From Amphiscolops sp. MND2022 (Eukaryota), in contig OZ076418.1 in the NCBI GenBank assembly GCA_964187785.1, forward strand, positions 54,808,001 to 54,872,000: 64,000 bases of DNA, written 5' to 3'. Below the pieces are notes generated by a model. That model was not told where the DNA came from and did not search any database. It saw nothing but the letters and a program-made list of their open reading frames with translations. Made by a program: the position numbers and the translations under genes. Below, in pieces: positions 3,001-47,528 of this stretch (positions are counted from its first letter, which is position 1; every line of letters begins with the position of its first letter).

Positions 3001-6000
3001 ATCAAACGATTGATTCGCTCAGTATGAGCATACAGAAAATAGTGAAATTTTATGGGTAACTGTATTTCCCGTTTTCTCTTTTAACCTGCGCTCTGTCAGT
3101 TTGAGCCCGTTAGGTGCTTAAACTGACCCGTTTCCTCTTTGTTTTCTTTTCCGCTTTTCTTGATAGGACAGTACTTTTCAGGCTGCTGGTGATGTGCAAG
3201 ATGACAACAGGAAACCCGGCCTGCTTGCAGGATTGCCAACTACCTTCTGGGAAAAAGTTGTAGAGCTTTCCATTGGAACATTTCCCCCCTTGCCGCAGTT
3301 TGGACCCGTGTAGTCTGTAGCTTGGACCCGTGAAGTGGGTGCAGCAATTTTGTAAGTACCAGAGGTGGAAGTATAAGAAAGTTGTATAATATATCTGTAA
3401 TAGACTTTTTCATATGTTCACAAAAATCACATTCATGACATATCTTACATCTGACACGTTTTTCAGATATCACAACAATGGTTACAAGAATTGCTCTCAT
3501 CGGTGCAAGTAATCTAGTCTCTTTTGAAAGTGAGCAGTGGGTTGCCTGTACCTGTGAAGCGACTTGTAAGGTCAAAGAGCACAGTCCTCAAGTCCCCAAT
3601 GACATTGTATACAAAGTTTTCGCTGCTGGAGGAGCAAAGTTTCGTCATCACAAACACCAGACGAATGCCGCAAATATGTTCACTAAAGCTGTCGAAGAGT
3701 TCAAGCCGCACGTCGTTGTCTTATATCACGATATCACTATGAAATCCCTCACATTATGCTCTTTTGCGCCGCCCAATGCAACTGTTTTAACTCCGCAGCG
3801 AGTTTATGAAGATTTACGTGTTTTAGAAGGGGATTGCCCCGGCCATTTTGCTGTTATTCTATGTCGTAGAAGAGGACGTCATTAAGATTACGCCTTTCAA
3901 TAAAGCTGAGAGAGACTAGCAGTTTGAATGTACATTAAAGCTACAGATGAATTGTTATTGGAAAGACCATTTCAACTATGTGAATCTGAAAATAACTGAT
4001 TCAAGCTTCAAAGTTGATGATGTGACACATCAAACTATTGATTCGCTCAGTATGAGCATACAGAAAATAGTGAAATTTTATGGGTAACTGTATTTCCCGT
4101 TTTCTCTTTTAACCTGTGCTTTGTCAGTTTGAGCCCGTTAGGTGCTTAAACTGACCCGTTTCCTCTTTGTTTTTCTTCTTTTCCGCTTTTCTTGATAGGA
4201 CAGTACTTTTCAGGCTGCTGGTGATGTGCAAGATGACAACAGGAAACCCGGCCTGCTTGCAGGATTGCCAACTACCTTCTGGGAAAAAGTTGTAGAGCTT
4301 TCCATTGGAACATTTCCCCCCTTGCCACAGTTTGGACCCGTGTAGTCTGTGGCTTGGACCCGTGAAGTGAGTGCAGCAATTTTGTAAGTACCAGAGGTGG
4401 AAGTATAAGAAATTTGTATGATATATCTGTAATAGACTTTTTCAAAAATCACATTCATGACATATCTTACATCTGACACGTTTTTCAGATATCACAACAA
4501 TGGTTACAAGAATTGCTCTCATCGGTGCAAGTAATCTAGTCTCTTTTGAAAGTGAGCAGTGGGTTGCCTGTACCTGTGAAGCGACTTTTAAGGTCAAAGA
4601 GCACAGTCCTCAAGTCCCCAATGACATTGTATACAAAGTTTTCGCTGCTGGAGGAGCAAAGTTTCGTCATCACAAACACCAGACGAATGCCGCAAATATG
4701 TTCACTAAAGCTGTCGAAGAGTTCAAGCCGCACGTCGTTGTCTTATATCACGATATCACTATGAAATCCCTCACATTATCCTCTTTTGCGCCGCCCAATG
4801 CAACTGTTTTAACTCCGCAGCGAGTTTATGAAGATTTACGTGTTTTAGAAAGGGATTGCCCCGGCCATTTTGGTGTTATTCTATGTCGTAGAAGAGGACG
4901 TCATTAAGATTACGCCTTTCAATAAAGCTGACAGAGACTAGCAGTTTGAATGTACATTAAATCTACAGATGAATTGTTATTGGAAAGATCATTTCAACTA
5001 TGTGAATCTGAAAACAACTGATTCAAGCTTCAAAGTTGATGATGTGGCACATCAAACGATTGATTCGCTCAGTATGAGCATACAGAAAATAGTGAAATTT
5101 TATGGGTAACTGTATTTCCCGTTTTCTCTTTTAACCTGCGCTCTGTCAGTTTGAGCCCGTTAGGTGCTTAAACTGACCCGTTTCCTCTTTGTTTTCTTTT
5201 CCGCTTTTCTTGATAGGACAGTACTTTTCAGGCTGCTGGCGATGTGCAAGATGACAACAGGAAACCCGGCCTGCTTGCAGGATTGCCAACTACCTTCTGG
5301 GAAAAAGTTGTAGAGCTTTCCATTGGATCATTTTCCCCCTTGCCGCAGTTTAGACCCGTGCAGTCTGTAGCTTGGACCCGTGAAGTGGTTGCAGCAATTT
5401 TGTAAGTACCAGAGGTGGAAGTATAAGAAAGTTGTATAATATATCTGTAATAGACTTTTTCATATGTTCACAAAAATCACATTCATGACATATCTTACAT
5501 CTGACACGTTTTTCAGATATCACAACAATGGTTACAAGAATTGCTCTCATCGGTGCAAGTAATCTAGTCTCTTTTGAAAGTGGGCAGTGGGTTGCCTGTA
5601 CCTGTGAAGCAACTTGTAAGGTCAAATAGCACAGTCCTCAAGTCCCCAATGACATTGTATACAAAGTTTTCGCTGCTGGAGGGGCAAAGTTTCGTCATCA
5701 CAAACACCAGACGAATGCCGCAAATATGTTCACTAAAGCTGTCGAAGAGTTCAAGCCGCACGTCGTTGTCTTATATCACGATATCACTATGAAATCCCTC
5801 ACATTATCCTCTTTTGCGCCGCCCAAAGCAACTGTTTTAACTCCGCAGCGAGTTTATGAAGATTTACGTGTTTTAGAAAGGGATTGCCCCGGCCATTTCT
5901 GCTGTTATTCTATGTCGTAGAAGAAAAGAGGTCGCCGTTAAGATTACGCCTTTCAATAAAGCTGACAGGGACTAGCAGTTAGAATGTACATTAAATCTAC

Positions 6001-7740
6001 AGATGAATTGTTTTTTTGAAAGACCATTTCAACTATGTGAATCTGAAAATAACTAATTCAAGCTTCAAAGTTGATGATGTGGCACATCAAACGATTGATT
6101 CGCTCAGTATGAGCATACAGAAAATAGTGAAATTTTATGGGTAACTGTATTTCCCGTTTTCTCTTTTAACCTGCGCTCTGTCAGTTTGAGCCCGTTAGGT
6201 GCTTAAACTGACCCGTTTCCTCTTTGTTTTCTTTTCCGCTTTTCTTGATAGGACAGTACTTTTCAGGCTGCTGGCGATGTGCAAGATGACAACAGGAAAC
6301 CCGGCCTGCTTGCAGGATTGCCAACTACCTTCTGGGAAAAAGTTGTAGAGCTTTCCATTGGATCATTTTCCCCCTTGCCGCAGTTTAGACCCGTGCAGTC
6401 TGTAGCTTGGACCCGTGAAGTGGGTGCAGCAATTTTGTAAGTACCAGAGGTGGAAGTATAAGAAAGTTGTATAATATATCTGTAATAGACTTTTTCATAT
6501 GTTCACAAAAATCACATTCATGACATATCTTACATCTGACACGTTTTTCAGATATCACAACAATGGTTACAAGAATTGCTCTCATCGGTGCAAGTAATCT
6601 AGTCTCTTTTGAAAGTGGGCAGTGGGTTGCCTGTACCTGTGAAGCAACTTGTAAGGTCAAATAGCACAGTCCTCAAGTCCCCAATGACATTGTATACAAA
6701 GTTTTCGCTGCTGGAGGGGCAAAGTTTCGTCATCACAAACACCAGACGAATGCCGCAAATATGTTCACTAAAGCTGTCGAAGAGTTCAAGCCGCACGTCG
6801 TTGTCTTATATCACGATATCACTATGAAATCCCTCACATTATCCTCTTTTGCGCCGCCCAAAGCAACTGTTTTAACTCCGCAGCGAGTTTATGAAGATTT
6901 ACGTGTTTTAGAAAGGGATTGCCCCGGCCATTTCTGCTGTTATTCTATGTCGTAGAAGAAAAGAGGTCGCCGTTAAGATTACGCCTTTCAATAAAGCTGA
7001 CAGGGACTAGCAGTTAGAATGTACATTAAATCTACAGATGAATTGTTTTTTTGAAAGACCATTTCAACTATGTGAATCTGAAAATAACTAATTCAAGCTT
7101 CAAAGTTGATGATGCGGCACATCAAACGATTGATTCGCTCAGTATGAGCATACAGAAAATAGTGAAATTTTATGGGTAACTGTAGTTTCCGTTTTCTCTT
7201 TCTTTTAGCCTGCGCTTTGTCAGTTTAAGCCCGTTAGGTGCTTGAACTGACCCGTTTCCTCGTTGTTTTCCTTCTTTTCCGCTTTTCTTGATAAAACAGT
7301 ACTTTTCAGGCTGCTGGCGATGTGGAAGATGAACACAGGAAACCCGGCCTGCTTGCAGGAATGCCAGCTATCTTCTGGGAAAAAGTTGTAGAGCTTTCCA
7401 TTGGAACCGTTTTCCCCCCTTGCCGCAGCTTGGACCCGTGAAGTGGGTGCAGCAGTTTTGTAAGTAGCAGAGGTGGAAGAATAAGAATGTTGTATAATAT
7501 ATCTGTAATAGTTTTTCATATGTTCACAAAAATCACATTCATGACATGTCTTACATCTGACACGTTTTTCAGATACCACAACAATGGTTTTAAGAATAGC
7601 TCTCATCGGTGCAAGTAATCTAGTCTCTTTTAAGAGTCAGCAGTGGGTGGCCTGTACCTTCTGAAGCAACTTGTGAGGTCAAAGAGCACAGTCCTCAAGT
7701 CCCCAATGACATTGTATACAAAGTTTTCGCTGCTGGAGGG
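1..7740. repeat. Tandem array of ~1.03-kb units (7 full copies plus a diverged, truncated 8th; left end runs off the window)
   Basis: The unit start TCAGTTTGAG(A)CCGTTAGG recurs near 1, 1033, 2066, 3097, 4125, 5146, 6181 and 7221. The same ORFs recur (387, 1419, 2450, 3478, 4500). Copies 6 and 7 form a near-identical pair, and copy 8 is the most diverged. Confidence 0.97.
387..996 (+). pseudogene. SGNH/GDSL-hydrolase-like pseudogene (one per 1.03-kb unit; first copy given)
   Basis: The 135-aa ORF has block I-like IALIGASN, block II-like AAGG and block III-like VVLYHD. A shifted frame continues DVIKITPFNKAERD*QFEC...SSFKVDDVTHQ...KFYG*, supplying a block V D-x-x-H. Copies 6/7 read through that junction in frame (CRRRKEVAVKITP) but carry other lesions. 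Confidence 0.6.
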
Positions 7741-8242: not shown

Positions 8243-9550
8243 ATGGTTGTTCTGGTTAAATACTTTCGATCATACCACGATGAACTCTCTGGTCTGCGTG
8301 AGTCTAGCCCTTGGTTCAACTGGAATAATGTCGAGAACAAGACTTTGAGACTCTTGGAACAACTGAAAGTAAAAATAAGCGAAACAAGGAGAGTGGTCAA
8401 CTTCAGAAACGGCAACAACAACTCGATCCCCGTCGCGGCTACACATGGAACGACCTGAGCAAAGCCATCGACGTAGTTTACAACGGCAACGACGAAGAAT
8501 TAGGCATCGAAACGCTAATGAAATTACTGATAGAAGACTACACCGCGAAAGATTGTAGAACGTTCCAAACCTTTTGAATGGCTGTTTTGATTTACCGAAC
8601 GGGTCAACGACCGGAATGGATTAAAACTTCACCCTGAAGGATGGTATTCAGCATTGAAAACTTTGCCTAGTGGTACTTTCGTCTTGAACTTGGAACATCA
8701 TAAGGCGAAACATTTCAACAATATTGCCAGCGCCTTCGTAGACTCTGTCTACACCCCTTACTTTGTTCACTTTTTTGAGAAAGTCCGGCCAAGATATGTC
8801 ACTTTGCTCGGCGTAGCCCCAGAAAACGAGAACGGATGTGTAAAAAGTAAAGTTATCACCACTTCGAACGTGAATTTCCATAGTGAACAGGCGAAGGAAA
8901 CGTTTTATGCTTTCTTGTCCCAGACTTGTGGACAATTCGCATCGTGTCCCTTGTACGCACGCCTCGACAAAAATTACGAATTCCGACACATTACTTCAAC
9001 AAAAGCGAGGCACGTTTTCGAAACATCGACTCGTTGTCCTGAACTCCGAATGTCAAACTTGGAAATTGAAATACTGACAACTTCGCTGAATCATTCGAAA
9101 GCCGTCGCCGAACGAAACTTTGTCGATTACGGAGTTAACTATGCAGAGTACGACCGCATAATCACAGAAGCGAAGCGAAAATGGACGAAAGGTTTCTTCA
9201 ATCGGATAGGATTAGGGTTAGGAATGAATCAACCAATCAATTACGCTCGTAGTCTGTTAGATCGCCGTGAGTGGCCGAAATTCAAAGAATTTTTGTTGCC
9301 CAATGAAATGGAAGACTTGCACCAACGGGGTGACAAAGTGCAAGCGAACTGTTTGAGAGGTAAACTTGTCGAACGTTATCTGGACGATGAGATCCAGAGG
9401 TACATTGCTCTGAAAGCGGACCAAAATTTTGAAACGGAATTTTCGAAAGCGCGAACTACAGATGCAGCTCTTGGAATTTTTCGAAAACTAGAAGTTGGAA
9501 AATTGAAAGGCAAAAGTTGTGAAAACATAATGCAGCAAAAAAAGTTTTGA
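8243..9550 (+). pseudogene. Tyrosine-recombinase (phage integrase/Crypton-like) domain, fragmented
   Basis: ORF 8654..9550 has VLNLEHHKAK (catalytic-K strand), ITSTKARHVFET (HxxR-equivalent box) and SLNHSKAVAERNF (H...Y box with F at the expected Tyr position). Upstream frames from 8243 are broken by stops and shifts. Confidence 0.6.
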
Positions 9551-10214
9551 ATCGAGTCTTCGGTAGCATTAACAGGAATTTTAGCGAGAAACCAGTGGGG
9601 AAATCCTGCAGTAGGTCTCTTTTCAAAATGCCATCTCTGAGCAAATTGGACGCGGAGAGTCAGAAAAACTTGTACCTCCGTTGGATTTTGTCTTTAGACG
9701 GTCAATCTGATGATCCGATCATCAACGAAATAAGATTGCAGCAATGGACGAAAATTGAGATGAAGGACATCGATGCGGTGAAAGGAAAAGGAATCGTTGC
9801 CACCACAACCATTGAGCCCCAAAAAGTAGTGTGCGACTACCACGGTCACTACCTGACCCTGGCTCAGCACATTACTCATGATCGTGATGAGGTCGACGAC
9901 CAAAACCGCTACTTTTTTGTTTTGCAGGTTTACAATTCTTTGAAAAGAAAGGCGAATCACACCGTGGAGGAGCTAGAGACGCTAACCGCAATTGATGCGA
10001 GCTCCGGTAGTTGCCTGTGCCATCCGAAACTGGCTGCAAAAGGCCGTTTCATCAATCATTGTCATTACCAAAGATCGATCAATGTTTTAAAAACGAAAAA
10101 AAAACGTTGTTTTTGAAGGCCAAGAGTTGACTGATTCTCTTCAAAGCTTATAGACGCATTTTGCCCGGACAAGAGTTGGTCTATAGTTATAACGAAACTT
10201 TGCGCTTCGATTAG
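9547..10214 (+). pseudogene. SET-domain lysine methyltransferase, PR-Set7/KMT5A-like, frameshifted
   Basis: ORF 9547..10116 has KGKGIVAT, VCDYHG, AIDAS and CLCHP...GRFINH. The C-terminal motif LILFKAYRRILPGQELVYSY lies in another frame after an A-run (about 10133-10214). Confidence 0.8.
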
Positions 10215-10644: not shown

Positions 10645-11341
10645 TAGTATATCATCTTTCATCCAAAACTGTATAGCGTCCAGTTTTTCCTTATAAATAT
10701 GTTTATAAAGAACGAGGTTAGGTTCTCGAACAATTTTAGCACCAGGAGCCTCATTTAAGACAACAGTAAATAAAATATTTGATAGATATCCGTTTCGTAG
10801 AGAACCAACAATACAATCACAACAAATGTGAAGACGATGAATATCAATAATATTGACTTTGTTTTTAGAGTAGTTATATGAATCTGTTAAAATCTTTGAT
10901 TCAAATCCTAAGAGGTCTCTTAATGTGTTAGATTGTGTGAAATCAATTTGATATCCATCAGCAAGGCGTATAATAGAATGAAGAGTGGCTGTGTTAGCTT
11001 CAAGAATTATAAGACTTTGTTTCATCTGTAAAATTGACTTCAAGAGAAATTTGTCTGACAATTTCATCATTAATCTGTTCTATTTCATAAGCGCCGTATG
11101 GAAAAACAATTTCTTTCCAATTTAAGCCATCAAAATATCCAATTTTATTGTTTTTGGAGGTTACGTTGAATATAGAATTGTAAGTATTAAACGATGTAAC
11201 ACCCATGACGTAATTTCCGTCTGAAAGGTCAATGCTATCTAGTAGGTCCAATCTATATTCATTTGTTTTATATTCTACTTCTATAGGAATTTGAGGTAGA
11301 GGACGAGTATTTTTCTCAATTTGAATCAAAGTTTTCTCCAT
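10645..11341 (-). pseudogene. Polinton minor capsid (penton-like) gene, split by a frameshift and truncated at the element end
   Basis: ORFs 11000..11341 and 10486..11070 join into one protein with FPYGAYEIEQIN, LRDLLGF, IHRLHICCDCIVGSLRNG, PGAKIVREP and LYKHI motifs, which I recognise as Polinton minor capsid-like. Confidence 0.7.
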
Positions 11342-11786
11342 TTATATAATGAAAACGTTCATACCCTTTTCATATTCAGTGTTTGTTATTTCCTCCATTC
11401 GTAAAAGTTCGGCTAATATTGCTGAAGCCTCACGATAAGCATTTTTATTTCCTGCGAATGATTCACCAACTAGAACTTCTAACCTTTCAACTAAAGTATT
11501 TGGATCAGATGATAGAAATATAAAAGTAGTTCCCTGTCCCTCAATATTTTGGTATTGAGATTCTTTAATGTATTTGACTGTTTTATAAAGATTTGATTTA
11601 ACATCTCGTCCTAATCCACCAGCATAATCTACAAATTCAACAAGAGCTTCTTTTTCCTCATCGGATAGTTGTGTAAAGTCAGTTTTATTACCACTCAAAC
11701 AATTGATGAAAAATGGAGTTATTTCAAATTCAAGGTCGTTAAACTTTATCTTGTTATCAATAATTTTGAATATTGTTTTGATGTCA
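11342..11786 (-). pseudogene. 3' half of a Polinton-associated unknown ORF (5' half at about 18025-18475)
   Basis: FIFLSSDPNTLVERLEVLVGESFAGN is a motif commonly seen in ORFs next to Polinton penton genes. The frame extends upstream (IDNKIKFNDLEFEITP) across a 1-nt shift. Confidence 0.55.
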
Positions 11787-12315
11787 AGGGAATCGTTGAA
11801 ACCTTACGTTCAAAGCAAATCCGTATTCCACTGAACTGTTTTAGCAAAAACTATCAAATTTGTCTAACCTAACCGTGCCACCGACACTGTTCACCTTTCC
11901 TCTAAGCATAAGCTTCTTCAAGCCTCTACTGCAATCCATTTTAGCCTTCCTAGGGGCCTTTTATGTTTGCTGGAACGCACGCTACGGTCCTTGCTACATA
12001 GTTCTCCAGCAAGATCTAAAGCTACCACTCCCCACATTGTATTTAACCTGTTGTTATTAGTAAAGATCATTCTACAAATTCTGAGGGCAAGATTTCCCCT
12101 CTTCTACTGCTAGTAAACTATTCATCCAGTCTCCCCAACAATCTATTTATCTGTGAAACCTTTTCTGATACAGGCCATAATCCATCTGGACAGGAGCCCC
12201 TATCAGTCCGATTTTCAATTCTTGAGAACTTGCCCTTGCATCAAAAATATCTCCACATTAATCTCAACCCATTTCCTTCAGTACCTTACTTAGCAACCGA
12301 TTTATCACAGATCAA

Positions 12316-13575
12316 ATGGCTGAACCAGCAGCAGCTAACAACACTAGAGCAGCCAGAGATGCAGCCCATCGCCGAAACATGTCTGCCCTCATTAAGGAGA
12401 GTCCTCAGAACACTCCAGTGAGACAGTATGCTCAGCTCATGGTGGAAGGGATAAATGCTGCCCCTCAACAGGAAAGAGATGCTCTCTACGAAGCAATCTT
12501 TAAAAATATCACTGAGTATCCCATTGTGAACGATCCCAGCATAAGGTCAGCTCACTACAAAAAGCTCCTTGTAGTGATTAGCAAGTTCATTGCAAAACAC
12601 GGCCTTTATGATATGTTTTTGGCTCCTGTTCCCTCCACGATCAATCTAGCAGATATCCCCAATGATCAGATGACAAATCTGGCGGCGATAGTGACTGGCA
12701 TATCAGATAAAAAGAGACTGAATGCAAATAACAGAAATGGGGAAGGTGTGGGACCTGAATATTTCAGTGATTTCATTGAGATTTATCAAGAAGATCCCAT
12801 AATGGCATCTCAACTCTTTCCCAGATGTGAGCGCAGGATAAAGAATGGAGTCGGTAGGGGTATCATTTCTGCTGAGGAAGGAAGAGCTATGGCAGAAGCA
12901 TGTGGAGTGCTCGCCAATTATGAGGCTCTGGCTGCAACACCGGGAGCAGAGAACAACAATGCTGTCAATGAATGTGTCTACCCTTTCATTGCAGCATATA
13001 TGCTAGACAAACTCTCACAGGAAAAAGTCAAAAAGTACCTCAAGGCATTTCAGGTGAAGCCTGGGAAATCGGTGACCAACTTACTGATCAGAGAGCTTAG
13101 AGACACAGGCTGGCCTCTTTGTCCTGTTGGAGGGCTCTACGGGCATCCCTTTAACCTGACCGGGCTCAAGGCAGATGTATGCCTTAATATATTTGGGCCT
13201 ACCAGTGGTAAGGCATCTGTGTTATGCCTGCTCAAGGTGAAGGACATCATAAGAGCTATAAACGCACAGTACATTTACGAGCTAAACTCAGGCACCTGGA
13301 ACCTTGCGACAACAGACAGGGATGCAGGCTCCACCGCTATGTGGCTGGTAACGCAGCTGCAAATGAACTTCACTTGTATGTACTTTATGAAGAACTTCAC
13401 TGGGGCAGACAACAAGACTGTTGTCTTCAATATGGACCCAGACGCCGCGGCAGATGCTCCTGTGACTCCTTACCAGAACAGGACTGCTTCCAATGCAGCA
13501 GATGGCTGCAACACTGTCAGACAAGTGATGGGTGCCTTAAGGAAGGAAGGAACCTTTGGACACCTGAATTGGTGA
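12316..13575 (+). CDS. Intact 419-aa intronless ORF, putative endogenous RNA-virus nucleocapsid/capsid gene
   Basis: The frame is uninterrupted. The DNA is visibly more GC-rich and CpG-poorer than the AT-rich Polinton flanks. The product looks helical with an Ala/Arg-rich N-arm and has a size typical of viral N proteins. No diagnostic family motif was recognised. Confidence 0.45.
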   Translation: MAEPAAANNTRAARDAAHRRNMSALIKESPQNTPVRQYAQLMVEGINAAPQQERDALYEAIFKNITEYPIVNDPSIRSAHYKKLLVVISKFIAKHGLYDMFLAPVPSTINLADIPNDQMTNLAAIVTGISDKKRLNANNRNGEGVGPEYFSDFIEIYQEDPIMASQLFPRCERRIKNGVGRGIISAEEGRAMAEACGVLANYEALAATPGAENNNAVNECVYPFIAAYMLDKLSQEKVKKYLKAFQVKPGKSVTNLLIRELRDTGWPLCPVGGLYGHPFNLTGLKADVCLNIFGPTSGKASVLCLLKVKDIIRAINAQYIYELNSGTWNLATTDRDAGSTAMWLVTQLQMNFTCMYFMKNFTGADNKTVVFNMDPDAAADAPVTPYQNRTASNAADGCNTVRQVMGALRKEGTFGHLNW

Positions 13576-14164
13576 TCCTTTCTACACACCATATTTCAAC
13601 TCACCTAAGGACTACAACTTTTTCTACAACTAATTCCACGAAATTCTAATAATAAAGTCATGTAATTCATAACTTATATCATTAATTGTAACGTTTTATT
13701 GTGGCAGTTTCAGATGCTCAGGTTGTTCATGGCAAGGACCCCTTCCTATGATAAGTTGTCACGAACATATTCTAATTGTTGTGATAAACTTATTAAATAG
13801 GCTGTTTATTTCCCTTTTCACAAATTGAATTTGTTTCATATTAAATGCGCGCTGGGTGAGTAATAACATCAACAATTCGAAAGCCTCACCATCCCAGCCG
13901 TAGGTGAGCAGAAAGCGACACAGCTCTTGAGCTTTTACACAAACCCCAGGTGCGGCGAGGCACAGGAAGGAAAGCAACCAGTAACCCGAACAAAAGCATC
14001 ACCTCCAGGTTGTTTCTTTCCAAAAAAAAAGATCTTTTAAAAATCTCCGCTTGCTTTTATCGATATTTTACATTATTTTAAAAAAAAATGATTCTTGACC
14101 TGTCTTTTTAAATCAACGAGCATCCCATGATTGCGTACTTCACCCAGTTTTCCGTTTCAGCGAG

Positions 14165-14692
14165 ATGCCCCGGTTCAGCCCCAGACGTCTGAACAGGAAT
14201 ACCTCAAATCTTGTCATCGGCACTTCTAGAACGAAGTACATCAAAAGCAACGAAGTAGGCGCAGCAATTCATTCGTACAGAGGAGCAACATTGCCTGAAT
14301 TGAGCCATTTAGTTGAGTCGTACCCGTTCCAAAAGCTGAACAAGGTGGTGATTGTTGCAGGCTTCAACGATCACCGAGACAGTACTAGAGTTTTTAGCGA
14401 AAATTGGCGATACCTGATCCAGCTCGTGATCTGGAAATTTAACCCCTCAACCCTTATTATCCCTAAAACAATCAGCACCTCCAATAATAGAAATATTAAT
14501 AGTAAAATTTATCATTTAAATTATGCCCTTTTCAATTTAATTAACTCCCTGCGCCTGCCAATAATCTCCCCTAATTTTAACCTCGATTTTGACAGTAAGA
14601 TTTTTTCTCGTGACGGTGTCCATTTTTCAACCTTTGGTAATTTTATATTTACAAAGATTCTCCATTTCTACATGAATTCATTTATACCTTAA
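14165..14692 (+). CDS. SGNH esterase-like ORF1
   Basis: The four SGNH blocks appear in order: LVIGTS, SYRGA, VVIVAGFND, RDGVHF. Confidence 0.75.
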   Translation: MPRFSPRRLNRNTSNLVIGTSRTKYIKSNEVGAAIHSYRGATLPELSHLVESYPFQKLNKVVIVAGFNDHRDSTRVFSENWRYLIQLVIWKFNPSTLIIPKTISTSNNRNINSKIYHLNYALFNLINSLRLPIISPNFNLDFDSKIFSRDGVHFSTFGNFIFTKILHFYMNSFIP

Positions 14693-14737
14693 CAAATGTA
14701 TTCTGTGTGACATAACAATCGGCAGTCTTCCCTCATC

Positions 14738-14981
14738 ATGGCCGATCAGAAAGAATGTAGTCACTGCGATAAAAAACTCCACCAAAATGGAGTGTGGTGC
14801 GGCATATGCGGATACCTCCACGTCAAATGCAGCGGCCTGAAGAACAAGAAAGTGGAAGAAGGATTTCGTCTGCGTCAACTGCGAACCCCCACCGCTAGTC
14901 CCCCCACCACCGCAAATCCGTTCATCACCGCAAATCTCACCGCCACCGGACATTTCGCGAACACCTGGAAACTTTTGGAAC
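14738..14981 (+). pseudogene. PHD finger plus proline-rich linker, the frameshifted N-terminus of the RT ORF
   Basis: CSHC..WCGIC..YLHVKC is in one frame. After a shift near 14845 the RT frame reads KWKKDFVCVNCEPPP...NFWNMITAEH, completing the C4HC3 pattern and running into ATG 14982. Confidence 0.7.
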
Positions 14982-17738
14982 ATGATAACCGCCGAACATT
15001 GTCAAAAACTGAAACTAATATATAAAGAAATAGTTCACTGGCGACCAAAATTTTTCACCCTGAAAAAGAACAAAACAGGACACGCCTTTATAGATACTCT
15101 CCACACAACACTGTCAGCTCTCCTAGACAGATCCCAAGACGCCTTGTTGGTCGCTATGGTGATGCCCCATCTCGTACTCCCGCGAACGAAAAGCGAAAAT
15201 GATGGATCACAGAACCAAACGCTAACGCGACGGTTGGAAATGTGGCTGAACGGACAGTTCGACGATCTGTTTCATGAAGCCAAAGCCCTCCAACTACGTC
15301 TCAAGAGATATCAAACCAAACAAAGAGACGTTTTCAAAGAGTTCGATCACCACGTGACGACTGGAAAAATCTCGAATGCGCTTAGATGTCTAGAAGAAGA
15401 CCAGAAGGGTCATGTACTATCGCTAAGCGATAAAATTGATAACAAAACAGTTAACCAAATCTTGCTCGAAAAACATCCAGAGCCAGCAGATATGAAAGTA
15501 AATTACTTGGTCGAGAATCCCTTTGAACAAACTCTGCCCTTTCATCCTTCAATCTTTGACCAACTTAACGCCCGAACGATTCGAAACGCCGCCATGAAAA
15601 CCCAAGGTAGCCACGGACCGTCAGGTTTAGACGCAAATGAATGGCGACGTTTTTTGACACTTTTCGGGCAATCCTCAGTTAACCTCTGCAAATGCTTAGC
15701 GGATATAGCAAAGCTTATCGCCACAACCGAGCTACCTTCCGGAACCCTCGAAGCCTATAACGCTTGCCGTTTGATTCCATTAGACAAGAATCCCGGTGTC
15801 AGGCCAATTGGCGTAGGTGAAGTACTTCGACGAATAATTGGAAGAAGTATTCTAAAATGCCTCTCAAACGACCTCAAACAGCTGGGAGGCAACCTGCAGC
15901 TCTGCCTAGGCCAAAAATGCGGAATAGAATTCGCCATTCATTCTCTAAGAGACGCCTTTGACAAACCTGAATCTGAAGGAATGCTCCTAATTGACGCCAC
16001 AAATGCATTCAACAGTTTGAACAGAAAAGTAGCACTCGAAAACATAAAGGTCGTATGTCCATCCCTTCTCATCCCTCTGAAAAATTCTTATGCATCTCCC
16101 TGCTCTCTTTTTGTCAACGGTAAAGTGATTCTTTCACAAGAAGGCACGACTCAAGGTGAGCCTCTTGCAATGGCAATGTATGGAATTGCCCTTTTGCCAC
16201 TTGTGAAGCTACTAGAGAACACCGATATAGTTCAGAAGTGGTACGCCGACGACGGAAACGCCGTAGGAAAACTGGAAGATCTACATCGACTCCACGAGGC
16301 TCTAGCTGAACACGGCCCAGCGTTTGGATACCACATTACCAAGTGCCACATTATAGCAAAAAAGAATCACATAGAAAACGCCAAGGAAATTTTCAAGAAT
16401 AAAGATGTTGATGTCTTGGAAGGCCATCGAGTACTCGGATCGGTCATCGGCAGCACATCCGCCTGTCACGATTTCAAAACAAAAATAGTGTCAGAGCACG
16501 CAAAGACCATCTCGAAACTATCACAGCACGCCAAAACAGCCCCTCAGAATGTATATCAAGCATATACAAAAGGCATGCAAACGAAATTTTCCTTTCTAAC
16601 TCGTACAACGCCCGACATGGAAGAGTATCTGCAAGAGCCCGAAAAACATATCAAAGAAAATCTAATTCCGTCACTGACAGGAAAAAACACTGTAACGACC
16701 ACTGATAGAATTTTGTTCTCTCTACCCGTGAGAAATGGAGGCCTCAACATAAGCCTTCCGGAAGACAACATAAATAACCTCAGATGGTCCAAATCCCTCG
16801 GTGACTGCCTGTCTAACGCTGATCCCATGACAGCTGAAAACTCGCAACATAGGATTAAGCGCGTTATAAGAGAAGAAAAGAAGAAGATGTTGACGGAAAA
16901 AATAGACAAAGTGAAACAGGGTGCCACGGAAGATCAGCTCTACGCCCTGCAACTGGCGTCGGAGAAAGGGGCATCCAGTTGGCTCAACGCCTTACCCCTG
17001 AAAAGATACGGCTTCACATTAACGAAGACGGAGTTTCGCGATGGTCTTGCAATTCGTTATGGATGGGAACCGAAGAATATCCCAGCATCATGTCCATGTG
17101 GAGAAACTTTCAATCTAGCACACGCACTGCACTGTGCCAAAGGCGGATACACCCATATGAGACACAACGAAATCCGCGACACTTTCGCAAATCTCATGAA
17201 AGATGTTTGTTTCGATGTAGAACTTGAACCAAAGCTTCAGCCGTTAGAAGGTGAGTCCTTCGATAACAAAACAACGACCACTGAAGACGAGGCCAGGTTG
17301 GACATCAAAGCAAACGGTCTATGGGAAACGAGATTTAATCGTACGTTTTTCGACGTGAAAATTTTCAATCCTCATGCAAAATCCTGCCCCAGAAACATCA
17401 AAGAAGCCTATAAACTTCATGAAGCTCAAAAACGATTGAAATACGAGCAACGAATAGTCGAAGTTGAAAACAGCTCCTTTAACCCACTCGTATTTGCAAC
17501 CACAGGTGGAGCCGCCCCGACTGCCTCTAAGGTAATGAGCAGGCTTGCATTTAAACTTAGCGAAAAGAGTGAAGACACTTATGCAGAGGTAATGGGCTAC
17601 ATAAGAACGAAAGTAAGCTTTGCCCTACTGAAAAGCTCCGTTCTGTGCCTCCGTGGATGCCGTTCACTCAAACGACAACCTGAAATCATTGATTCTGCGA
17701 TCGGTGCAATAGTAGAAGAGGGAAGACTGTCCCAGTGA
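14982..17738 (+). CDS. Reverse transcriptase + CCHC knuckle + PD-(D/E)xK restriction-like endonuclease
   Basis: RT motifs are PGVRPIGVGE, LIDATNAFN, GTTQGEPL and WYADD. The C-terminus has CPCG...HALHC, RHNEIRD, RLDI...FFDVK and KRLKY. Confidence 0.93.
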   Translation: MITAEHCQKLKLIYKEIVHWRPKFFTLKKNKTGHAFIDTLHTTLSALLDRSQDALLVAMVMPHLVLPRTKSENDGSQNQTLTRRLEMWLNGQFDDLFHEAKALQLRLKRYQTKQRDVFKEFDHHVTTGKISNALRCLEEDQKGHVLSLSDKIDNKTVNQILLEKHPEPADMKVNYLVENPFEQTLPFHPSIFDQLNARTIRNAAMKTQGSHGPSGLDANEWRRFLTLFGQSSVNLCKCLADIAKLIATTELPSGTLEAYNACRLIPLDKNPGVRPIGVGEVLRRIIGRSILKCLSNDLKQLGGNLQLCLGQKCGIEFAIHSLRDAFDKPESEGMLLIDATNAFNSLNRKVALENIKVVCPSLLIPLKNSYASPCSLFVNGKVILSQEGTTQGEPLAMAMYGIALLPLVKLLENTDIVQKWYADDGNAVGKLEDLHRLHEALAEHGPAFGYHITKCHIIAKKNHIENAKEIFKNKDVDVLEGHRVLGSVIGSTSACHDFKTKIVSEHAKTISKLSQHAKTAPQNVYQAYTKGMQTKFSFLTRTTPDMEEYLQEPEKHIKENLIPSLTGKNTVTTTDRILFSLPVRNGGLNISLPEDNINNLRWSKSLGDCLSNADPMTAENSQHRIKRVIREEKKKMLTEKIDKVKQGATEDQLYALQLASEKGASSWLNALPLKRYGFTLTKTEFRDGLAIRYGWEPKNIPASCPCGETFNLAHALHCAKGGYTHMRHNEIRDTFANLMKDVCFDVELEPKLQPLEGESFDNKTTTTEDEARLDIKANGLWETRFNRTFFDVKIFNPHAKSCPRNIKEAYKLHEAQKRLKYEQRIVEVENSSFNPLVFATTGGAAPTASKVMSRLAFKLSEKSEDTYAEVMGYIRTKVSFALLKSSVLCLRGCRSLKRQPEIIDSAIGAIVEEGRLSQ

Positions 17739-18503
17739 CACCAGCACATGGTATCCCCGACGTGCATTTATTTGCTAGATTCCACTCTACAACGATCAAT
17801 GTTTAACATTGTGATAATATGCAGTATTTTATAAATTCTCCTCCACTTACCAAGGTTTACAATATTTATTTCTATGGGACCGTTAGTGACACTGCAAGGA
17901 GGCTCTGCAGCTTGCAGCGTAAATGACACCCTCTCCGACCCTTTCCCGACTCGCCCTCCTCTTAAAAACGGGCTCCTTTATTAGTTTGCAACGTGAAAAA
18001 TGGGTTTCAATACGCACGGTCCCTTTTTTTATTTTCATAATTTTGAATGGGTTTTCATTCACCTTGTAATTGTTAAAATTTTCTTTAGTGAATTTAAATT
18101 TTGCATGTGTGTTATCTTCGTTTAACAAGGCAGAAATTTTGTCAGATATATCACCATCCATTGAAAAAATATTTTGACTAACTTCATCTTCGGATGGACC
18201 TTCTATTGATTCTAATGTTTCATCTTGGGTTGTTGGAGCTGTGATTGCTTTTAATGTTTCAAAAGCTTGCTTTTGATCATCTTGTCCTTGTTTGATAACT
18301 TCAGTTTGTTTTTCTTGTAGTTTTGTTATAGGCGCGTATTGTTCAGCTAAATCATAATTCTGTGTGGTTTTTAATATTTTGTTGTTTAACCGTAGTTTTT
18401 TAATATCCTTTTTCTGGTTAATAATTTTTTGAGCTTTTCGAGGTCTTCAATATTGGTTGGTGTGTGATAGGTCATTTATAAATCAAAAATTTGATTTTTC
18501 CAA

Positions 18504-19250
18504 TCAACGAAAGGGGTTAGTAGAAGGAAGGTATAGGGTATTTAAATTCCTACGATATTTGCCATCGTTTTTCTTTTTGGTTAAATCAATAGTTATAAAG
18601 TTATAATCATCATTCCATACTTCATGACAAAATTGTTTGAATTCTTTTATTACCATATCTGTGGAAGCTAGTTGTCTATGAATACATTCTACATTGGCGA
18701 AATTATTTGTTATAAAGTGATGAATAATTGTTGAGTTTTCTCTAATAGTGTCCTTAGGAAGCTCATAAAATCCATGTGATATAACAAAAATAGAAAGATT
18801 ATGACGACCCCTCTTGAATAACATTTGAAAACGAGGGTCTTGTAATTGTTGTTTGTTTAAGTCATCAAGAATTATTACAGTATGTATGTCTGATTCATAT
18901 TCTTGAGGATCTTTCAATTCATCTATGTTGTCATAACTTTCACATTCTATATGCGATGATTCAAAGTCTTCATCGTTGATAATTTCTTCTATTATTGTGT
19001 CTAGTTCATCAAGAGGAATTTGTTCTTTTAAAATATTTTGAATAACATTCAGAGGTAAGAAACTATTGAAGCATTTGATTATAGTTTTATAAGTCGGTTG
19101 ATGAATAGTTGGAGAAAATATTAAAATTTTGTCAAAATCGTTGATTATCTTGAATAATATTTTGAAGAGAAGTGTTGATTTACCGCTTGCTGATTTACCT
19201 GAGATTATACAACGCACAGGTTTTTCAGGGTAAAGATATTTTTCAATCAT
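18504..19250 (-). CDS. A32/FtsK-like DNA-packaging ATPase (Polinton type)
   Basis: Walker A is SGKSASGKS and Walker B is VIILDD, followed by the KRGRH and VISH motifs. Confidence 0.85.
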   Translation of the reverse strand: MIEKYLYPEKPVRCIISGKSASGKSTLLFKILFKIINDFDKILIFSPTIHQPTYKTIIKCFNSFLPLNVIQNILKEQIPLDELDTIIEEIINDEDFESSHIECESYDNIDELKDPQEYESDIHTVIILDDLNKQQLQDPRFQMLFKRGRHNLSIFVISHGFYELPKDTIRENSTIIHHFITNNFANVECIHRQLASTDMVIKEFKQFCHEVWNDDYNFITIDLTKKKNDGKYRRNLNTLYLPSTNPFR

Positions 19251-19625
19251 TTATATTTTGAAAATCATTTCAAATAAATGTTTCCTAATAAATGAATTAT
19301 TGATTATTCGTTAACATTTCGACATATTTCATAAATTCCAAAACAAATTTCATATTCGTACTCTACACAATAATACCTTTCGAACGATATACAACACTTC
19401 ATTAAAATCAATAATTTCAAAAAATTTTCCATGCTTTTCCCAGTTTTTGCATTTAATTTTTCCATGATTTTTTTTGAACTATGTTTGGGATTCAATAACA
19501 ATTACAATAGTTATTTGAAGTCAATCGAATGGATATTCATGGAAAAATTAGTAAAAACCTGAGAGCAAGTTGATACAATTTAACACAGCGAGGGCATCGT
19601 GCCAAGTTTTGATAAGAATGATTTT

Positions 19626-20225
19626 TCAGTCTCGCTGCTCAAAATAGTACGTGAAAGTATTAGAAATCCATAACTTTTGAACTTTTGTTATAAAGTGATG
19701 AATAATTGTTGAGTTTTCTCTAATAGTGTCCTTAGGAAGCTCATAAAATCCATGTGATATAACAAAAATAAGATTATGACGACCCCTCTTGAATAACATT
19801 TGAAAACGAGGGTCTTGTAATTGTTGTTTGTTTAAGTCATCAAGAATTATTACAGTATGTATGTCTGATTCATATTCTTGAGGATCTTTCAATTCATCTA
19901 TGTTGTCATAACTTTCACATTCTATATGCGATGATTCAAAGTCTTCATCGTTGATAATTTCTTCTATTATTGTGTCTAGTTCATCAAGAGGAATTTGTTC
20001 TTTTAAAATATTTTGAATAACATTCAGAGGTAAGAAACTATTGAAGCATTTGATTATAGTTTTATAAGTCGGTTGATGAATAGTTGGAGAAAATATTAAA
20101 ATTTTGTCAAAATCGTTGATTATCTTGAATAATATTTTGAAGAGAAGTGTTGATTTACCGCTTGCTGATTTACCTGAGATTATACAACGCACAGGTTTTT
20201 CAGGGTAAAGATATTTTTCAATCAT
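19626..20225 (-). pseudogene. Truncated duplicate of the packaging ATPase
   Basis: The first ~180 aa are nearly identical to 18504..19250, then an unrelated tail follows. It results from a ~0.98-kb tandem duplication (about 18707-19684 / 19685-20655). Confidence 0.85.
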
Positions 20226-21008
20226 TTATATTTTGAAAATCATTTCAAATAAATGTTTCCTAATAAATGAATTATTGATTATTCGTTAACATTTCGACAT
20301 ATTTCATAAATTCCAAAACAAATTTCATATTCGTACTCTACACAATAATACCTTTCGAACGATATACAACACTTCATTAAAATCAATAATTTCAAAAAAT
20401 TTTCCATGCTTTTCCCAGTTTTTGCATTTAATTTTTCCATGATTTTTTTTTGAACTATGTTTGGGATTCAATAACAATTACAATAGTTATTTGAAGTCAA
20501 TCGAATGGATATTCATGGAAAAATTAGTAAAAACCTGAGAGCAAGTTGATACAATTTAACACAGCGAGGGCATCGTGCCAAGTTTTGATAAGAATGATTT
20601 TTCAGTCTCGCTGCTCAAAATAGTACGTGAAAGTATTAGAAATCCATAACTTTTGAACTACTGAATGGATTTGATCCATCGACATTTCATTTTACTCGTA
20701 TTGAGAAGAGAATTACAATAGTGAAAACCCGGTGTTAAAATTCCCAGTAGATGAGGAGATAATTTTGTGAGTAAAAATTGAGTATGAGTTATTGATAAGT
20801 GGTGTAGTTAAAATCATTCAAGTGGTTAAGTTTTTCGTCAACTACTATAAAAGTCATCCAGTCTTTCTAGTCAAAATAGTCGAACAGCATTCCATTTTTC
20901 TTCACCACATTCCGATGAGCTTCAGTTTAGAAAAATTACAGATATAAAAGAATGTGAAGAAAATTGGAATGTTCAGTTTTATTCTTGTGTAATAAGTTGT
21001 TTATTAAC

Positions 21009-22250: not shown

Positions 22251-25200
22251 CGGCCCTGGGTACTGATGGAAAAACTGGTTGCAAGAGCGCTGTCAATATT
22301 TTTTGTCTGACAAAAATATTCTTTTTTCCATCTCTTCAAATCCAAGGAGAGAAGCAAATGCAAGTCAAAATTACAAATTTGTTTGTCAAAGTAAAAGTTT
22401 TTCTTTGAAAGGAGTTTATTTTCTCATTGAAATGCCTACAATTTTGCAATTTCTTTACTTTTAGTTTTTTTAGGATTCTTTGTTGCTACTCTCTGAAGTG
22501 ATGAACCGATCAGAAGAATATCCGCTTGTTTGCCCGATGAATTGTCCCATGTGCTTGGCACCTTTCAATGACGTTAAAACATTACAGAGACATCTACACG
22601 ATGTTCATTTTTGGCCCGTTCACGGAACTTTTGTGCACCAGAGAAAGTGCCAACTATGTCAGTTCTGTCAACAAAGCACGGACCACCAGCAATCTTCTAA
22701 AAAAAGTTGATTTTCGAAACACTACTGGAATGTACTTTTCACTCAACCAAAAAACATTGCACTTGCATTGATGTTGTTTTGGCAATCCTTTTTTGCTATC
22801 AAAATTCTACTTTTTGGCTATTTCGGATAACGAAAGAAGTTGATTGTTCTGAAGTTTGAAGTGAACGTGTAAATTGTGCTTTTGATATATTCATTCAAAG
22901 ATTGAAAATCAAACTTAGGTATCATTGATGGCATGAAATTTTCAATGAAGTAAAATTACATTCCAACACAACAGTGTTCGTATATGACGAAGGACCATCA
23001 ACATCGAAACGAAAACGTCCTTCCACAAATCAGTGAGGCCACACCGGCCCTGGGTACTGGTGGAAAAACTGGTTGCAAGAGCGCTATCAATATTTTTTGT
23101 CTGACAGAAAAATATTCTTCCTTTTCCATCTCTTCAAATCCAAGGAGAGAAGCAAATGCAAGTCAAAATCACAATTTTGTTTGTAAAAGTGAAAGTTTTT
23201 CCTTGAAAGGAGTTTATTTTCTCATTGAAATGCCTACAATTTTGCAATTTCTTTACACTTAGTTTTTTTAGGATTCTTTGTTGCTACTCTCTGAAGTGAT
23301 GAACCGATCAGAAGAATATCCGCTAGTTTGCCCGATGAATTGTCCCATGTGCTTGGCACCTTTCAATGACGTTAAACTATTACAGAGACATCTACACGAT
23401 GTTCATTTTTGGCCCGTTCACGGAACTTTCGTGCACCAGAGAAAACGCCAACTATGTCACTCCTGTCAACAAAGCACGGACCACCAGCAATCTTATAAAA
23501 AAATTGATTTTCGAAACACTACTGGAATGTACTTTTCACTCAACCAAAAAACATTGCACTTGCATTGATGTTGTTTTGGCAATCCTTTTTTGCTATCAAA
23601 ATTCTTCTTTTTGGCGATTTCGGATAACGAAAGAAGTTGATTGTTCTGAAGTTTGAAGTGAACGTTCAAATTGTGCTTTTGATACATTCGAAGATTGAAA
23701 TTCATACTTGGGTACCATTGATGGCATGAATTTTTCAATGAAGTAAAATTACATTCCAACACAACATTGTTCGTATATGACGAAGGACCATCAACATCGA
23801 TACGAAAACGTCCTTCCACAAATCAGTGAGGCCACACCGGCCCTGGGAACTGGTGGAAAAACTGGTTGCAAGAGCGCTATCAATATTTTTGTCTGACAGA
23901 AAAATATTCTTCTTTTTCCATCTCTTCAAATCCAAGGAGAGAAGCAAATGCAAGTCAAAATTACCAATTTGTTTGTAAAAGTAATAGTTTTTCCTTGAAA
24001 GGAGTTCATTTTTTCATTGAAATGCCTACAATTTTGCAATTTCTTTACACTTAGTTTTTTTAGGATTCTTTGTTGCTACTCTCCGAAGTGATGAACCGAT
24101 CAGAAGAATATCCGCTTGTTTGCCCGATGAATTGTCCCATGCGCTTGGCACCTTTCAATGACGTTAAAACATTACAGAGACATCTACACGATGTTCATTT
24201 TTGGCCCGTTCACGGAACTTTTGTGCACCAGAGAAAGTGCCAACTATGTCACTTCTGTCAACAAAGCACGGACCAACAGCAATCTTCTTTAAAAAAGTTG
24301 ATTTTCGAAACACTACTGGAATGTACTTTTCACTCAACCAAAAACCATTGCACTTGCATTGATGTTGTTTCGGAAATCCTTTTTTGCTATCAAAATTCTA
24401 TTTTTTGGCTAATTCGGATAACGAAAGTTGATTGTTCTGAAGTTTGAAGTGAAAGTTTAAATTGTGCTTTTGAAATATTCATTCGAAGATTGAAAATCAA
24501 ACTTAGGTATCATTGATGGCATGAAATTTTCAATGAAGTAAAATAACATTCCAACAACATTGTTCGTATATGACGAAGGACCATCAACATCGATACGAAA
24601 ACGTTCTTCCACAAATCAGTGAGGCCACACCGGCCCTGGGAACTGGTGGAAAAACTGGTTGCAAGAGCGCTATCAATATTTTTGTCTGACAGAAAAATAT
24701 TCTTCTTTTTCCATCTCTTCAAATCCAAGGAGAGAAGCAAATGCAAGTCAAAATTACCAATTTGTTTGTAAAAGTAATAGTTTTTCCTTGAAAGGAGTTC
24801 ATTTTTTCATTGAAATGCCTACAATTTTGCAATTTCTTTACACTTAGTTTTTTTAGGATTCTTTGTTGCTACTCTCTGAAGTGATGAACCGATCAGAAGA
24901 ATATCCGCTAGTTTGCCCGATGAATTGTCCCATGTGCTTGGCACCTTTCAATGACGTTAAACTATTACAGAGACATCTACACGATGTTCATTTTTGGCCC
25001 GTTCACGGAACTTTCGTGCACCAGAGAAAACGCCAACTATGTCACTCCTGTCAACAAAGCACGGACCACCAGCAATCTTATAAAAAAATTGATTTTCGAA
25101 ACACTACTGGAATGTACTTTTCACTCAACCAAAAAACATTGCACTTGCATTGATGTTGTTTTGGCAATCCTTTTTTGCTATCAAAATTCTTCTTTTTGGC

Positions 25201-28200
25201 GATTTCGGATAACGAAAGAAGTTGATTGTTCTGAAGTTTGAAGTGAACGTTCAAATTGTGCTTTTGATACATTCGAAGATTGAAATTCATACTTGGGTAC
25301 CATTGATGGCATGAATTTTTCAATGAAGTAAAATTACATTCCAACACAACATTGTTCGTATATGACGAAGGACCATCAACATCGATACGAAAACGTCCTT
25401 CCACAAATCAGTGAGGCCACACCGGCCCTGGGAACTGGTGGAAAAACTGGTTGCAAGAGCGCTATCAATATTTTTGTCTGACAGAAAAATATTCTTCTTT
25501 TTCCATCTCTTCAAATCCAAGGAGAGAAGCAAATGCAAGTCAAAATTACCAATTTGTTTGTAAAAGTAATAGTTTTTCCTTGAAAGGAGTTCATTTTTTC
25601 ATTGAAATGCCTACAATTTTGCAATTTCTTTACACTTAGTTTTTTTAGGATTCTTTGTTGCTACTCTCCGAAGTGATGAACCGATCAGAAGAATATCCGC
25701 TTGTTTGCCCGATGAATTGTCCCATGCGCTTGGCACCTTTCAATGACGTTAAAACATTACAGAGACATCTACACGATGTTCATTTTTGGCCCGTTCACGG
25801 AACTTTTGTGCACCAGAGAAAGTGCCAACTATGTCACTTCTGTCAACAAAGCACGGACCAACAGCAATCTTCTTTAAAAAAGTTGATTTTCGAAACACTA
25901 CTGGAATGTACTTTTCACTCAACCAAAAACCATTGCACTTGCATTGATGTTGTTTCGGAAATCCTTTTTTGCTATCAAAATTCTATTTTTTGGCTAATTC
26001 GGATAACGAAAGTTGATTGTTCTGAAGTTTGAAGTGAAAGTTTAAATTGTGCTTTTGAAATATTCATTCGAAGATTGAAAATCAAACTTAGGTATCATTG
26101 ATGGCATGAAATTTTCAATGAAGTAAAATAACATTCCAACAACATTGTTCGTATATGACGAAGGACCATCAACATCGATACGAAAACGTTCTTCCACAAA
26201 TCAGTGAGGCCACACCGGCCCTGGGAACTGGTGGAAAAACTGGTTGCAAGAGCGCTATCAATATTTTTGTCTGACAGAAAAATATTCTTCTTTTTCCATC
26301 TCTTCAAATCCAAGGAGAGAAGCAAATGCAAGTCAAAATTACCAATTTGTTTGTAAAAGTAATAGTTTTTCCTTGAAAGGAGTTCATTTTTTCATTGAAA
26401 TGCCTACAATTTTGCAATTTCTTTACACTTAGTTTTTTTAGGATTCTTTGTTGCTACTCTCTGAAGTGATGAACCGATCAGAAGAATATCCGCTTGTTCG
26501 CCCGATGAATTGTCCCATGTGCTTGGCACCTTTCAATGACGTTAAAACATTACAGAGACATCTACACGATGTTCATTTTTGGCCCGTTCACGGAACTTTT
26601 GTGCACCAGAGAAAACGCCAACAATGTCACTCCTGTCAACAAAGCACGGACCACCAGCAATCTTCTAAAAAAATTGATTTTCGAAACACTACTGGGATGT
26701 ACTTTTCACTCAACCAAAAAACATTGCACTTGTGTTGATGTTGTTTTGGCAATCCTTTTTTGCTATCAAAATTCTTCTTTTTGGCGATTTCGGATAACGA
26801 AAGAAGTTGATTGTTCTGAAGTTTGAAGTGAACGTTCAAATTGTGCTTTTGATACATTCGGAGATTGAAATTCAAACTTAGGTACCATTGATGGCATGAA
26901 ATTTTCAATGAAGTAAAATTACATTCCAACACAACATTGTTCGTATATGAAGAAGGACCATCAACATCGATACGAAAACGTCCTTCCACAAATCAGTGAG
27001 GCCACACCGGCCCTGGGAACTGGTGGAAAAACTGGTTGCAAGAGCGCTATCAATATTTTTGTCTGACAGAAAAATATTCTTCTTTTTCCATCTCTTCAAA
27101 TCCAAGGAGAGAAGCAAATGCAAGTCAAAATTACCAATTTGTTTGTAAAAGTAATAGTTTTTCCTTGAAAGGAGTTCATTTTTTCATTGAAATGCCTACA
27201 ATTTTGCAATTTCTTTACACTTAGTTTTTTTAGGATTCTTTGTTGCTACTCTCTCAAGTGATGAACCGATCAGAAGAATATCCGCTTGTTCGCCCGATGA
27301 ATTGTCCCATGTGCTTGGCACCTTTCAATGACGTTAAAACATTACAGAGACATCTACACGATGTTCATTTTTGGCCCGTTCACGGAACTTTTGTGCACCA
27401 GAGAAAACGCCAACAATGTCACTCCTGTCAACAAAGCACGGACCACCAGCAATCTTCTTAAAAAATTGATTTTCGAAACACTACTGGGATGTACTTTTCA
27501 CTCAACCAAAAAACATTGCACTTGCATTGATGTTGTTTTGGCAATCCTTTTTTGCTATCAAAATTCTTCTTTTTGGCGATTTCGGATAACGAAAGAAGTT
27601 GATTGTTCTGAAGTTTGAAGTGAACGTTCAAATTGTGCTTTTGATACATTCGGAGGTTGAAATTCAAACTTAGGTACCATTGATGGCATGAAATTTTCAA
27701 TGAAGTAAAATTACATTCCAACACAACATTGTTCGTATATGACGAAGGACCATCAACATCGATACGAAAACGTCATTCCACAAATCAGTGAGGCCACACC
27801 GGCCCTGGGAACTGGTGGAAAAACTGGTTGCAAGAGCGCTATCAATATTTTTGTCTGACAGAAAAATATTCTTCTTTTTCCATCTCTTCAAATCCAAGGA
27901 GAGAAGCAAATGCAAGTCAAAATTACCAATTTGTTTGTAAAAGTAATAGTTTTTCCTTGAAAGGAGTTCATTTTTTCATTGAAATGCCTACAATTTTGCA
28001 ATTTATTTACACTTAGTTTTTTTAGGATTCTTTGTTGCTACTCTCTGAAGTGATGAACCGATCAGAAGAATATCCGCTTGTTTGCCCGATGAATTGTCCC
28101 ATGTGCTTGGCACCTTTCAATGACGTTAAAACATTACAGAGACATCTACACGATGTTCATTTTTGGCCCGTTCACGGAACTTTTGTGCACCAGAGAAAAC

Positions 28201-44621: not shown

Positions 44622-44623
44622 TT

Positions 44624-45085: not shown

Positions 45086-45111
45086 TCTTTGCTAAAAATA
45101 GAATACAAAAG

Positions 45112-47247: not shown

Positions 47248-47528
47248 TATCTACTAATGAAAACGGTACTCCGAAAATACTATAAAAGGTTTAAGAAAAG
47301 AAAGGTAGACTTGCTAACCTTGAAAAGGAAGCTTTGCTTTCGATGAAGCAGTGAGAAGAGCAGCTTTGCTTTCAATAGAGCAGCGAGAAATCTGTAGCAC
47401 TTGGCAATACAGAATGTTTGTTCAAATCGAACTGAAAAGAGAGCAAGAATGAATTCTGCTTGAAGTTGACAACTTAGTCAAAGATGTGAAATGGATGATA
47501 GTCCTTTTCGTGAAAGGCTTTGATGAAT

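Follow-up and report, generated by a model that had tools for sequence, protein, structure and literature searches.

The analysed window, the whole stretch of 64,000 nucleotides from Amphiscolops sp. MND2022, held a single insertion at positions 11772-18036, made up of a foreign block and a retroelement. The insertion was bordered on the left (11760-11771) and on the right (18037-18048) by a 12-bp target-site duplication, ATAATTTTGAAT, identified from the sequence and from empty sites. The left flank had 67 matches in the genome. In all of the best 24 of these 67, which were non-self copies of a Polinton-like repeat, the left and right flanks were contiguous, and the 12-bp overlap was read directly in 21 of these 24 empty-site copies. 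Since the flanks are contiguous with a 12-bp overlap in other copies of the repeat, block and retroelement entered together. This agreed with the preliminary description, which had placed both in one interruption of a Polinton ORF; the boundaries given there, 11872-17875, were corrected to 11772-18036, with a block of 2.0 kb at 11772-13771. The left half of the interrupted repeat was located at 10650-11771 (-) by comparison of the flank with other copies. The right half, at 18037-20500 (-), carried an A32-type packaging ATPase at 18504-19250 that was partly duplicated (Pfam Pox_A32, E=4e-11), and given this ATPase the flanking repeat appears to fit a Polinton-like element. Elsewhere in the window, two overlapping frames, of which the second encodes a SET domain (E 1e-4), were present at 8591-10116 (+), and large tandem repeats with periods of ~1035 bp and ~790 bp occupied 5350-7636 and 22900-28000.

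The foreign block (11772-13771, + strand) consisted of a 544-nt 5' UTR, an ORF and a 196-nt 3' UTR, and was without poly(A). The ORF at 12316-13575 (+) was intact, as described before, and preceded an RLE-type non-LTR element of the same orientation. Its 419-aa product matched no named family and was predicted, from low-confidence models, to be mostly helical. Searches of Pfam, PDB sequences, a 5.8-billion protein set and the ESM Atlas gave no named homologue, and no relative turned up in viral or metagenome contigs. An exhaustive search of 1.84 billion representatives gave four matches, namely one variant and three fragments of a distant homologue. The distant homologue was broken, showed 31-57% identity and was located on 281-kb and 439-kb ENA contigs of another assembly; it was absent from this genome. 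AlphaFold models of the family reached a pLDDT of 38.6 and 37.5, too poor for a fold search, and Foldseek with these models gave no meaningful match (best E 0.036 and 0.12) and none to a viral protein. The 419-aa protein defines an unnamed family. A second ORF in the 5' UTR was considered and discarded, as it was not conserved.

That the block is compositionally foreign was borne out by CpG depletion but not by GC content. The CpG o/e was 0.33 in the window ORF, compared with 1.03 in ORF2 of the adjoining retroelement, and 0.33, 0.34 and 0.47 across the three variants of the ORF described below. Values were 0.83-0.85 for the flanks, 0.76-0.97 for host HSP70 genes (n=9) and 0.6-1.1 for host transposons and retroelement ORFs. 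The GC content of the block was 47%, and both GC and GC3 were inside the host HSP70 range. The latter would suit a retrocopy or 5' transduction of a host gene, yet such an origin has next to no likelihood: no parent locus was found in the assembly, CpG o/e was far under that of HSP70, and no cellular homologue occurred among the 1.84 billion representatives.

The retroelement downstream of the block was an RLE-type non-LTR retrotransposon at 13801-18036 (+), with ORF1 at 14165-14692 and ORF2 at 14738-17738. ORF2 contained an RT that matched Pfam RVT_1 above the cut-off, and carried a frameshift near 14850 relative to five of the six sister copies read. C-terminal CCHC and restriction-like endonuclease motifs were read from the sequence, and the element is presumably CRE-like. 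The block was missing from all seven near-identical copies of the same subfamily, subfamily 1, so it is not a constant part of the retrotransposon family. The window carrier was young, with 99.1-99.7% identity to these seven block-free sisters. Four of the seven started at the position corresponding to 13772, one at 13774 and one at 13801, and one was truncated. A constant extra ORF of the family was likewise rejected, the ORF and 5' motif being present at three loci only.

Block and carrier were joined by the 29 bases at 13772-13800 (+), which were nt 4-32 of the host spliced leader (SL). They had 1749 exact matches in the genome, against none for a reversed control, and match the SL of the acoel Symsagittifera roscoffensis as given in the accessible text of PMC9911081. 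The SL was numbered here from AGCC, the base preceding the published GCC being usually A. Thirty SL loci were read, of which 19 were SL RNA genes with a GTAAG/C donor and 11 were dispersed insertions with varied downstream sequence. Eighteen of the 19 SL RNA genes carried a AATTTTTG run, which we take to be the Sm site. Long arrays of SL RNA genes, repeating every 904 bp, were present at C1:16.23-16.42 Mb and beyond. In the fusions, the SL ran into carrier exons, whereas true SL genes continued with GTAAGT and the AATTTTTG run. A full SL was also found at the start of many dispersed retroelement insertions genome-wide, which shows that trans-spliced RNA is the template for several retrotransposon families: retroelement RNAs in this genome receive the SL by trans-splicing and carry it at their 5' end into new insertions.

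The 419-aa protein had 18 matches in the genome, which fell into three loci: the window, an array of three units on C11 (40.55-40.56 Mb, 82% aa) and an array of 12 units on C10 (55.31-55.36 Mb, 77% aa). The C10 units, at C10:55310000-55355000, were tandem, ~4.1 kb long and ended ~55 nt past the stop codon, and most had an intact ORF. Past the SL, the last of them continued as an element of a second RLE subfamily, which had 65-68% identity to that of the window. Block-free copies of this C10 carrier subfamily began with the SL and the same exon. The C10 carrier was 98.9-99.2% identical to its sisters and was 3'-truncated, and its target-site duplication was not recoverable.

At the C11 locus, the carrier was an env-bearing LTR element. 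The block began 12 nt past the LTR, within the primer-binding site, and continued via the SL into an internal exon of the element. The carrier had an LTR-LTR identity of 99.4% and a 4-bp target-site duplication, GCGT. Ordinary copies of the LTR element had the same exon after the acceptor TTCTCAG in 6/7 cases (the seventh was read in the wrong orientation), and in one block-free copy that exon was headed by the complete SL. The C11 sequence downstream of the SL was considered as a second viral gene and rejected, as it belongs to an abundant LTR family with 40 matches. At C4:51.68 Mb, an LTR start was joined to the full SL and internal exon without the block; this copy is a natural LTR recombinant from trans-spliced subgenomic RNA. 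TTTT preceded AGC both in this copy and in the C11 fusion. An LTR retrotransposon related to the C11 carrier was present in the window at 43830-57762 (-), with gag, pol, env and an ORF with a MATH/TRAF domain. Its env matched Monjiviricetes_fusion (E 4e-39), and its pol included a segment that we assume to be macro-like, where Pfam gave no match. The units repeated in tandem on C10 and C11 probably arose afterwards, by duplication at the DNA level. Each variant entered once and recently, on a different carrier, namely two RLE subfamilies and one env-bearing LTR element.

All three joints were in the same register, at SL nt 4-5, and SL nt 5-32 were exactly those of the host SL at all three loci. 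No poly(A) was found at any of the three joints. Upstream of SL nt 4, block-free SL-headed copies had GC in 26 of 29 cases and AGC in 24 of 29, compared with TT in 3/3 fusions, in a gap-free register; the C10 fusion also had T at nt 4 itself. Eighteen further T-preceded SL copies besides the three fusion loci carried no related block. The preliminary description had proposed that the RT finished the element RNA and jumped from its end onto a viral mRNA. Such a chance jump from end to end, made by an R2-type RT to an ordinary mRNA of a virus and perhaps with later co-option, accords with the template jumping of R2 RT in vitro noted in the available text of PMC8857657, as well as with the single target-site duplication and the intact ORF. 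However, the same register was found in three captures, and the first SL bases were lost in 3/3 fusions while GC was missing in only 3/29 block-free copies. The lack of poly(A), the LTR carrier, the conserved SL-complementary arm and neutral evolution after insertion also argued against it, leaving such a jump very improbable and largely refuted.

The arm was located at 13745-13767 (+), just upstream of the joint, and was predicted to pair with the SL over ~19-21 bp, including G-U pairs and bulges. For the 45 nt before the SL, the predicted duplex had energies of -16.1, -15.5 and -17.0 kcal/mol in the three variants, and only 3, 0 and 1 of 300 shuffles, respectively, paired as strongly with the SL. 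In the window copy, the arm paired best with the SL among 391 segments of the block. The last 164 alignment columns of the three variants were without internal gaps. Among 19 copies of RLE subfamily 2, 17 were read at the junction and the arm was there in 0/17.

The opposite end of the block was also conserved. The 5' element at 11775-11845 (+) comprised a candidate 7-bp stem and two pseudoknot-like helices. Over the alignment of the three variants, 64 of 90 columns were invariant, the 5' 75 nt were conserved and the three candidate helices were kept in every variant. All 20 pairs were retained, with one two-sided change; this was not above shuffles (181/500), and with only three variants, each one event, such structure statistics have little power. 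Allowing two mismatches, the 5' motif occurred in the genome only in the 16 copies at the three block loci, and it had no match in Rfam. An HDV-like ribozyme topology, judged by eye, did not fit, and a 5'-3' panhandle of the block was unconvincing.

The block variants shared 71-77% nucleotide identity. Between them, dS was 1.5, 2.3 and saturated, dN was 0.10-0.17 and dN/dS was ~0.05-0.07; high dS with low dN indicates that the variants diverged outside these loci under purifying selection. No source or parent locus was found, the assembly containing no other copy of the ORF or of the 5' motif. Evolution after insertion was read from the C10 array, the window copy being single. Eight full-length C10 copies held three synonymous and 11 non-synonymous variants, as expected under neutrality with 304 and 953 sites, respectively. 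Among the 12 copies, two were frameshifted and two were one residue shorter, some of these perhaps by assembly errors. The co-option considered in the preliminary description therefore found no support in the arrayed copies, which vary neutrally. Selection preceded insertion and did not continue after it.

These observations also bear on a vertically inherited, non-autonomous hitch-hiker that encodes its own protein and attaches to SL-capped retroelement RNA, its masters being missing from the assembly. Conserved structured ends would be expected of such an element, the divergence of the variants is similar to that between the retroelement subfamilies found here, and the distant homologue sits on long contigs of another assembly. 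On the other hand, each variant is represented by one insertion that decayed neutrally afterwards, and the CpG o/e of the block is unlike that of host transposons. This explanation was regarded as improbable.

The block probably stems from a viral or other exogenous RNA. Like non-retroviral EVEs, the copies were intronless and bore an integration signature (a 12-bp duplication in the window, 4 bp on C11), and selection at the protein level before insertion was followed by neutral evolution; homology to a known viral protein was not found in protein sets or in viral and metagenome contigs. The earlier reading as an RNA-virus gene thus stood in part: the block behaves as foreign RNA, and no cellular or transposon homologue was found, but neither sequence nor fold matched a virus. 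Mononegavirus-like RdRp fossils were present in the genome, with 19 matches on C3 and C4 and a CpG o/e of 0.32-0.61. Those at C3:21796900-21818200 and C4:71708100-71708600 matched PF00946 (best E 1e-33) and were broken and tandemly repeated. The C3 fossils were interleaved with LTR-element integrase fragments, which are presumably BEL/Pao. The CpG depletion of the block (0.33-0.47) resembles that of the RdRp fossils and not host HSP70 genes. The fossils had no SL, arm, 5' motif or nucleotide match to the insertion and were unlinked to the block. At 506-544 nt, the 5' UTR of the block variants is longer than would be expected of an N mRNA from a negative-strand virus. An orthomyxo-like origin was considered because the accessible parts of PMC10101049 (section 13) and PMC12277240 report a PB1 in the transcriptome of an acoel; a search of the genome for PB1 gave no match, and neither did its control.

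The retrotransposition of a foreign RNA in one event, as proposed earlier, stands on the target-site duplication and the empty sites. In our preferred reading, to which we assign a probability of about 0.5, the block is a reverse-transcribed foreign RNA, likely of an RNA virus, joined at the leader, likely by an RT switch inside the SL. The native RNA would have carried its own SL-like copy folded back on the arm, or would have docked via the arm on the SL of the carrier. On reaching the carrier SL, the RT would swap the end of its cDNA onto the foreign RNA and copy this to its 5' end. The insertion would be completed by TPRT in the window, with the 12-bp duplication, or by integrase on C11, with the 4-bp duplication. 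SL nt 5-32 would be exact at all three loci because the carrier supplied them. A blind jump from end to end would hardly yield a constant register in which the first SL bases are replaced. At none of the three loci was native sequence captured from past the SL, so that the SL-like copy of the native RNA is one that we infer. The SL-pairing arm may serve the replicon itself, by SL mimicry or recruitment of the capped SL, and capture in the genome would be a by-product.

Alternatively, joining may have taken place on RNA, with the foreign RNA, equipped with an SL copy and a donor site of its own, acting as a giant spliced leader that is trans-spliced onto acceptors, or being ligated into a cleaved SL. 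It would thereby gain a host mRNA body and poly(A), and fusions with retroelement RNA would be copied into DNA. This tentative explanation accords with several features. All three joints end at the SL 3' end on true acceptors, and poly(A) is absent at the joint. Once flank homology stops, the blocks on C10 and C11 open with AGC, the three bases of the SL that the joint lacks. The sequence CTATTG(A/G)TAAGTTTT, with which the SL pairs in the stem of the SL RNA, is similar to the arm, and the LTR case requires just two co-packaged RNAs. LINE-1 chimeras also form by RNA pre-ligation and not by jumping, according to the available text of PMC8857657. Against this, the window copy begins with ATT rather than AGC, and the donor model requires a 28/28 host-identical SL copy in three sequences otherwise 23-29% apart. 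Arm pairing across the SL RNA donor site lacked significance, as 24, 68 and 357 of 500 shuffles were as strong in the three variants, and the T at SL nt 4 in C10 is awkward for precise cleavage and ligation. A specific form, of slightly lower probability, is an acoel RNA replicon that parasitises trans-splicing as a 2-kb spliced leader, starting with AGC and ending with the rest of the SL; it would attach to host mRNAs, by splicing or insertion, for cap, body and poly(A), with the three fusions as its fossils. The RT switch is favoured over joining on RNA, two routes that DNA alone cannot separate.

Retroelement RTs generate non-retroviral EVEs, as with bornavirus N and LINE-1 or insect EVEs fused to LTR elements. 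The present captures share with these a foreign intronless ORF, a retroelement carrier, a target-site duplication and several independent captures of related variants; they differ in that every joint lies in the host SL, the RT classes are unrelated, an SL-complementary arm is present and no viral homologue was found. CRE and SLACS are RLE elements that target SL genes. NeSL is another such element, according to the accessible text of PMC4640811. Like these, the RLE-type carriers adjoin SL sequence, but NeSL, CRE and SLACS insert into SL genes, whereas here the elements are dispersed and the SL comes from trans-spliced RNA. For the dinoRNAV of Symbiodiniaceae, the available parts of PMC10235124 and PMC9651163 describe a 5' spliced leader and propose molecular mimicry. 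As there, where dinoRNAV EVEs lie near SL relics and retroelements, an RNA virus (here a putative one) is tied to the host SL. In dinoRNAV the viral RNA has the SL at its 5' terminus, whereas in the present fusions the SL follows the ORF on its 3' side, comes after its own complement and is the point where a second RNA takes over. In U6-LINE-1 chimeras, which the accessible text of PMC8857657 cites as products of RNA pre-ligation, a defined non-polyadenylated RNA likewise lies 5' of retroelement RNA and is inserted with it as one unit. Here, by contrast, a coding RNA of 2 kb is the cargo, the carrier side has a constant start in the SL, and one of the carriers is an LTR element. In the literature covered, which took in few subscription journals, we found no case of a foreign RNA that is complementary to the SL and was captured there.

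The capture, repeated and SL-directed, is a variant of retroelement-mediated endogenisation; the underlying replicon may represent a new kind. The findings suggest that selection has favoured base-pairing of a foreign RNA with the SL of an animal. The SL can act as a universal crossover point, at which unrelated RTs took the same cargo at the same position, and RNA viruses would thereby have a route into the genomes of SL-using animals that is directed by sequence. Should the joining occur at the RNA level, a replicon would be exploiting trans-splicing in a new manner.
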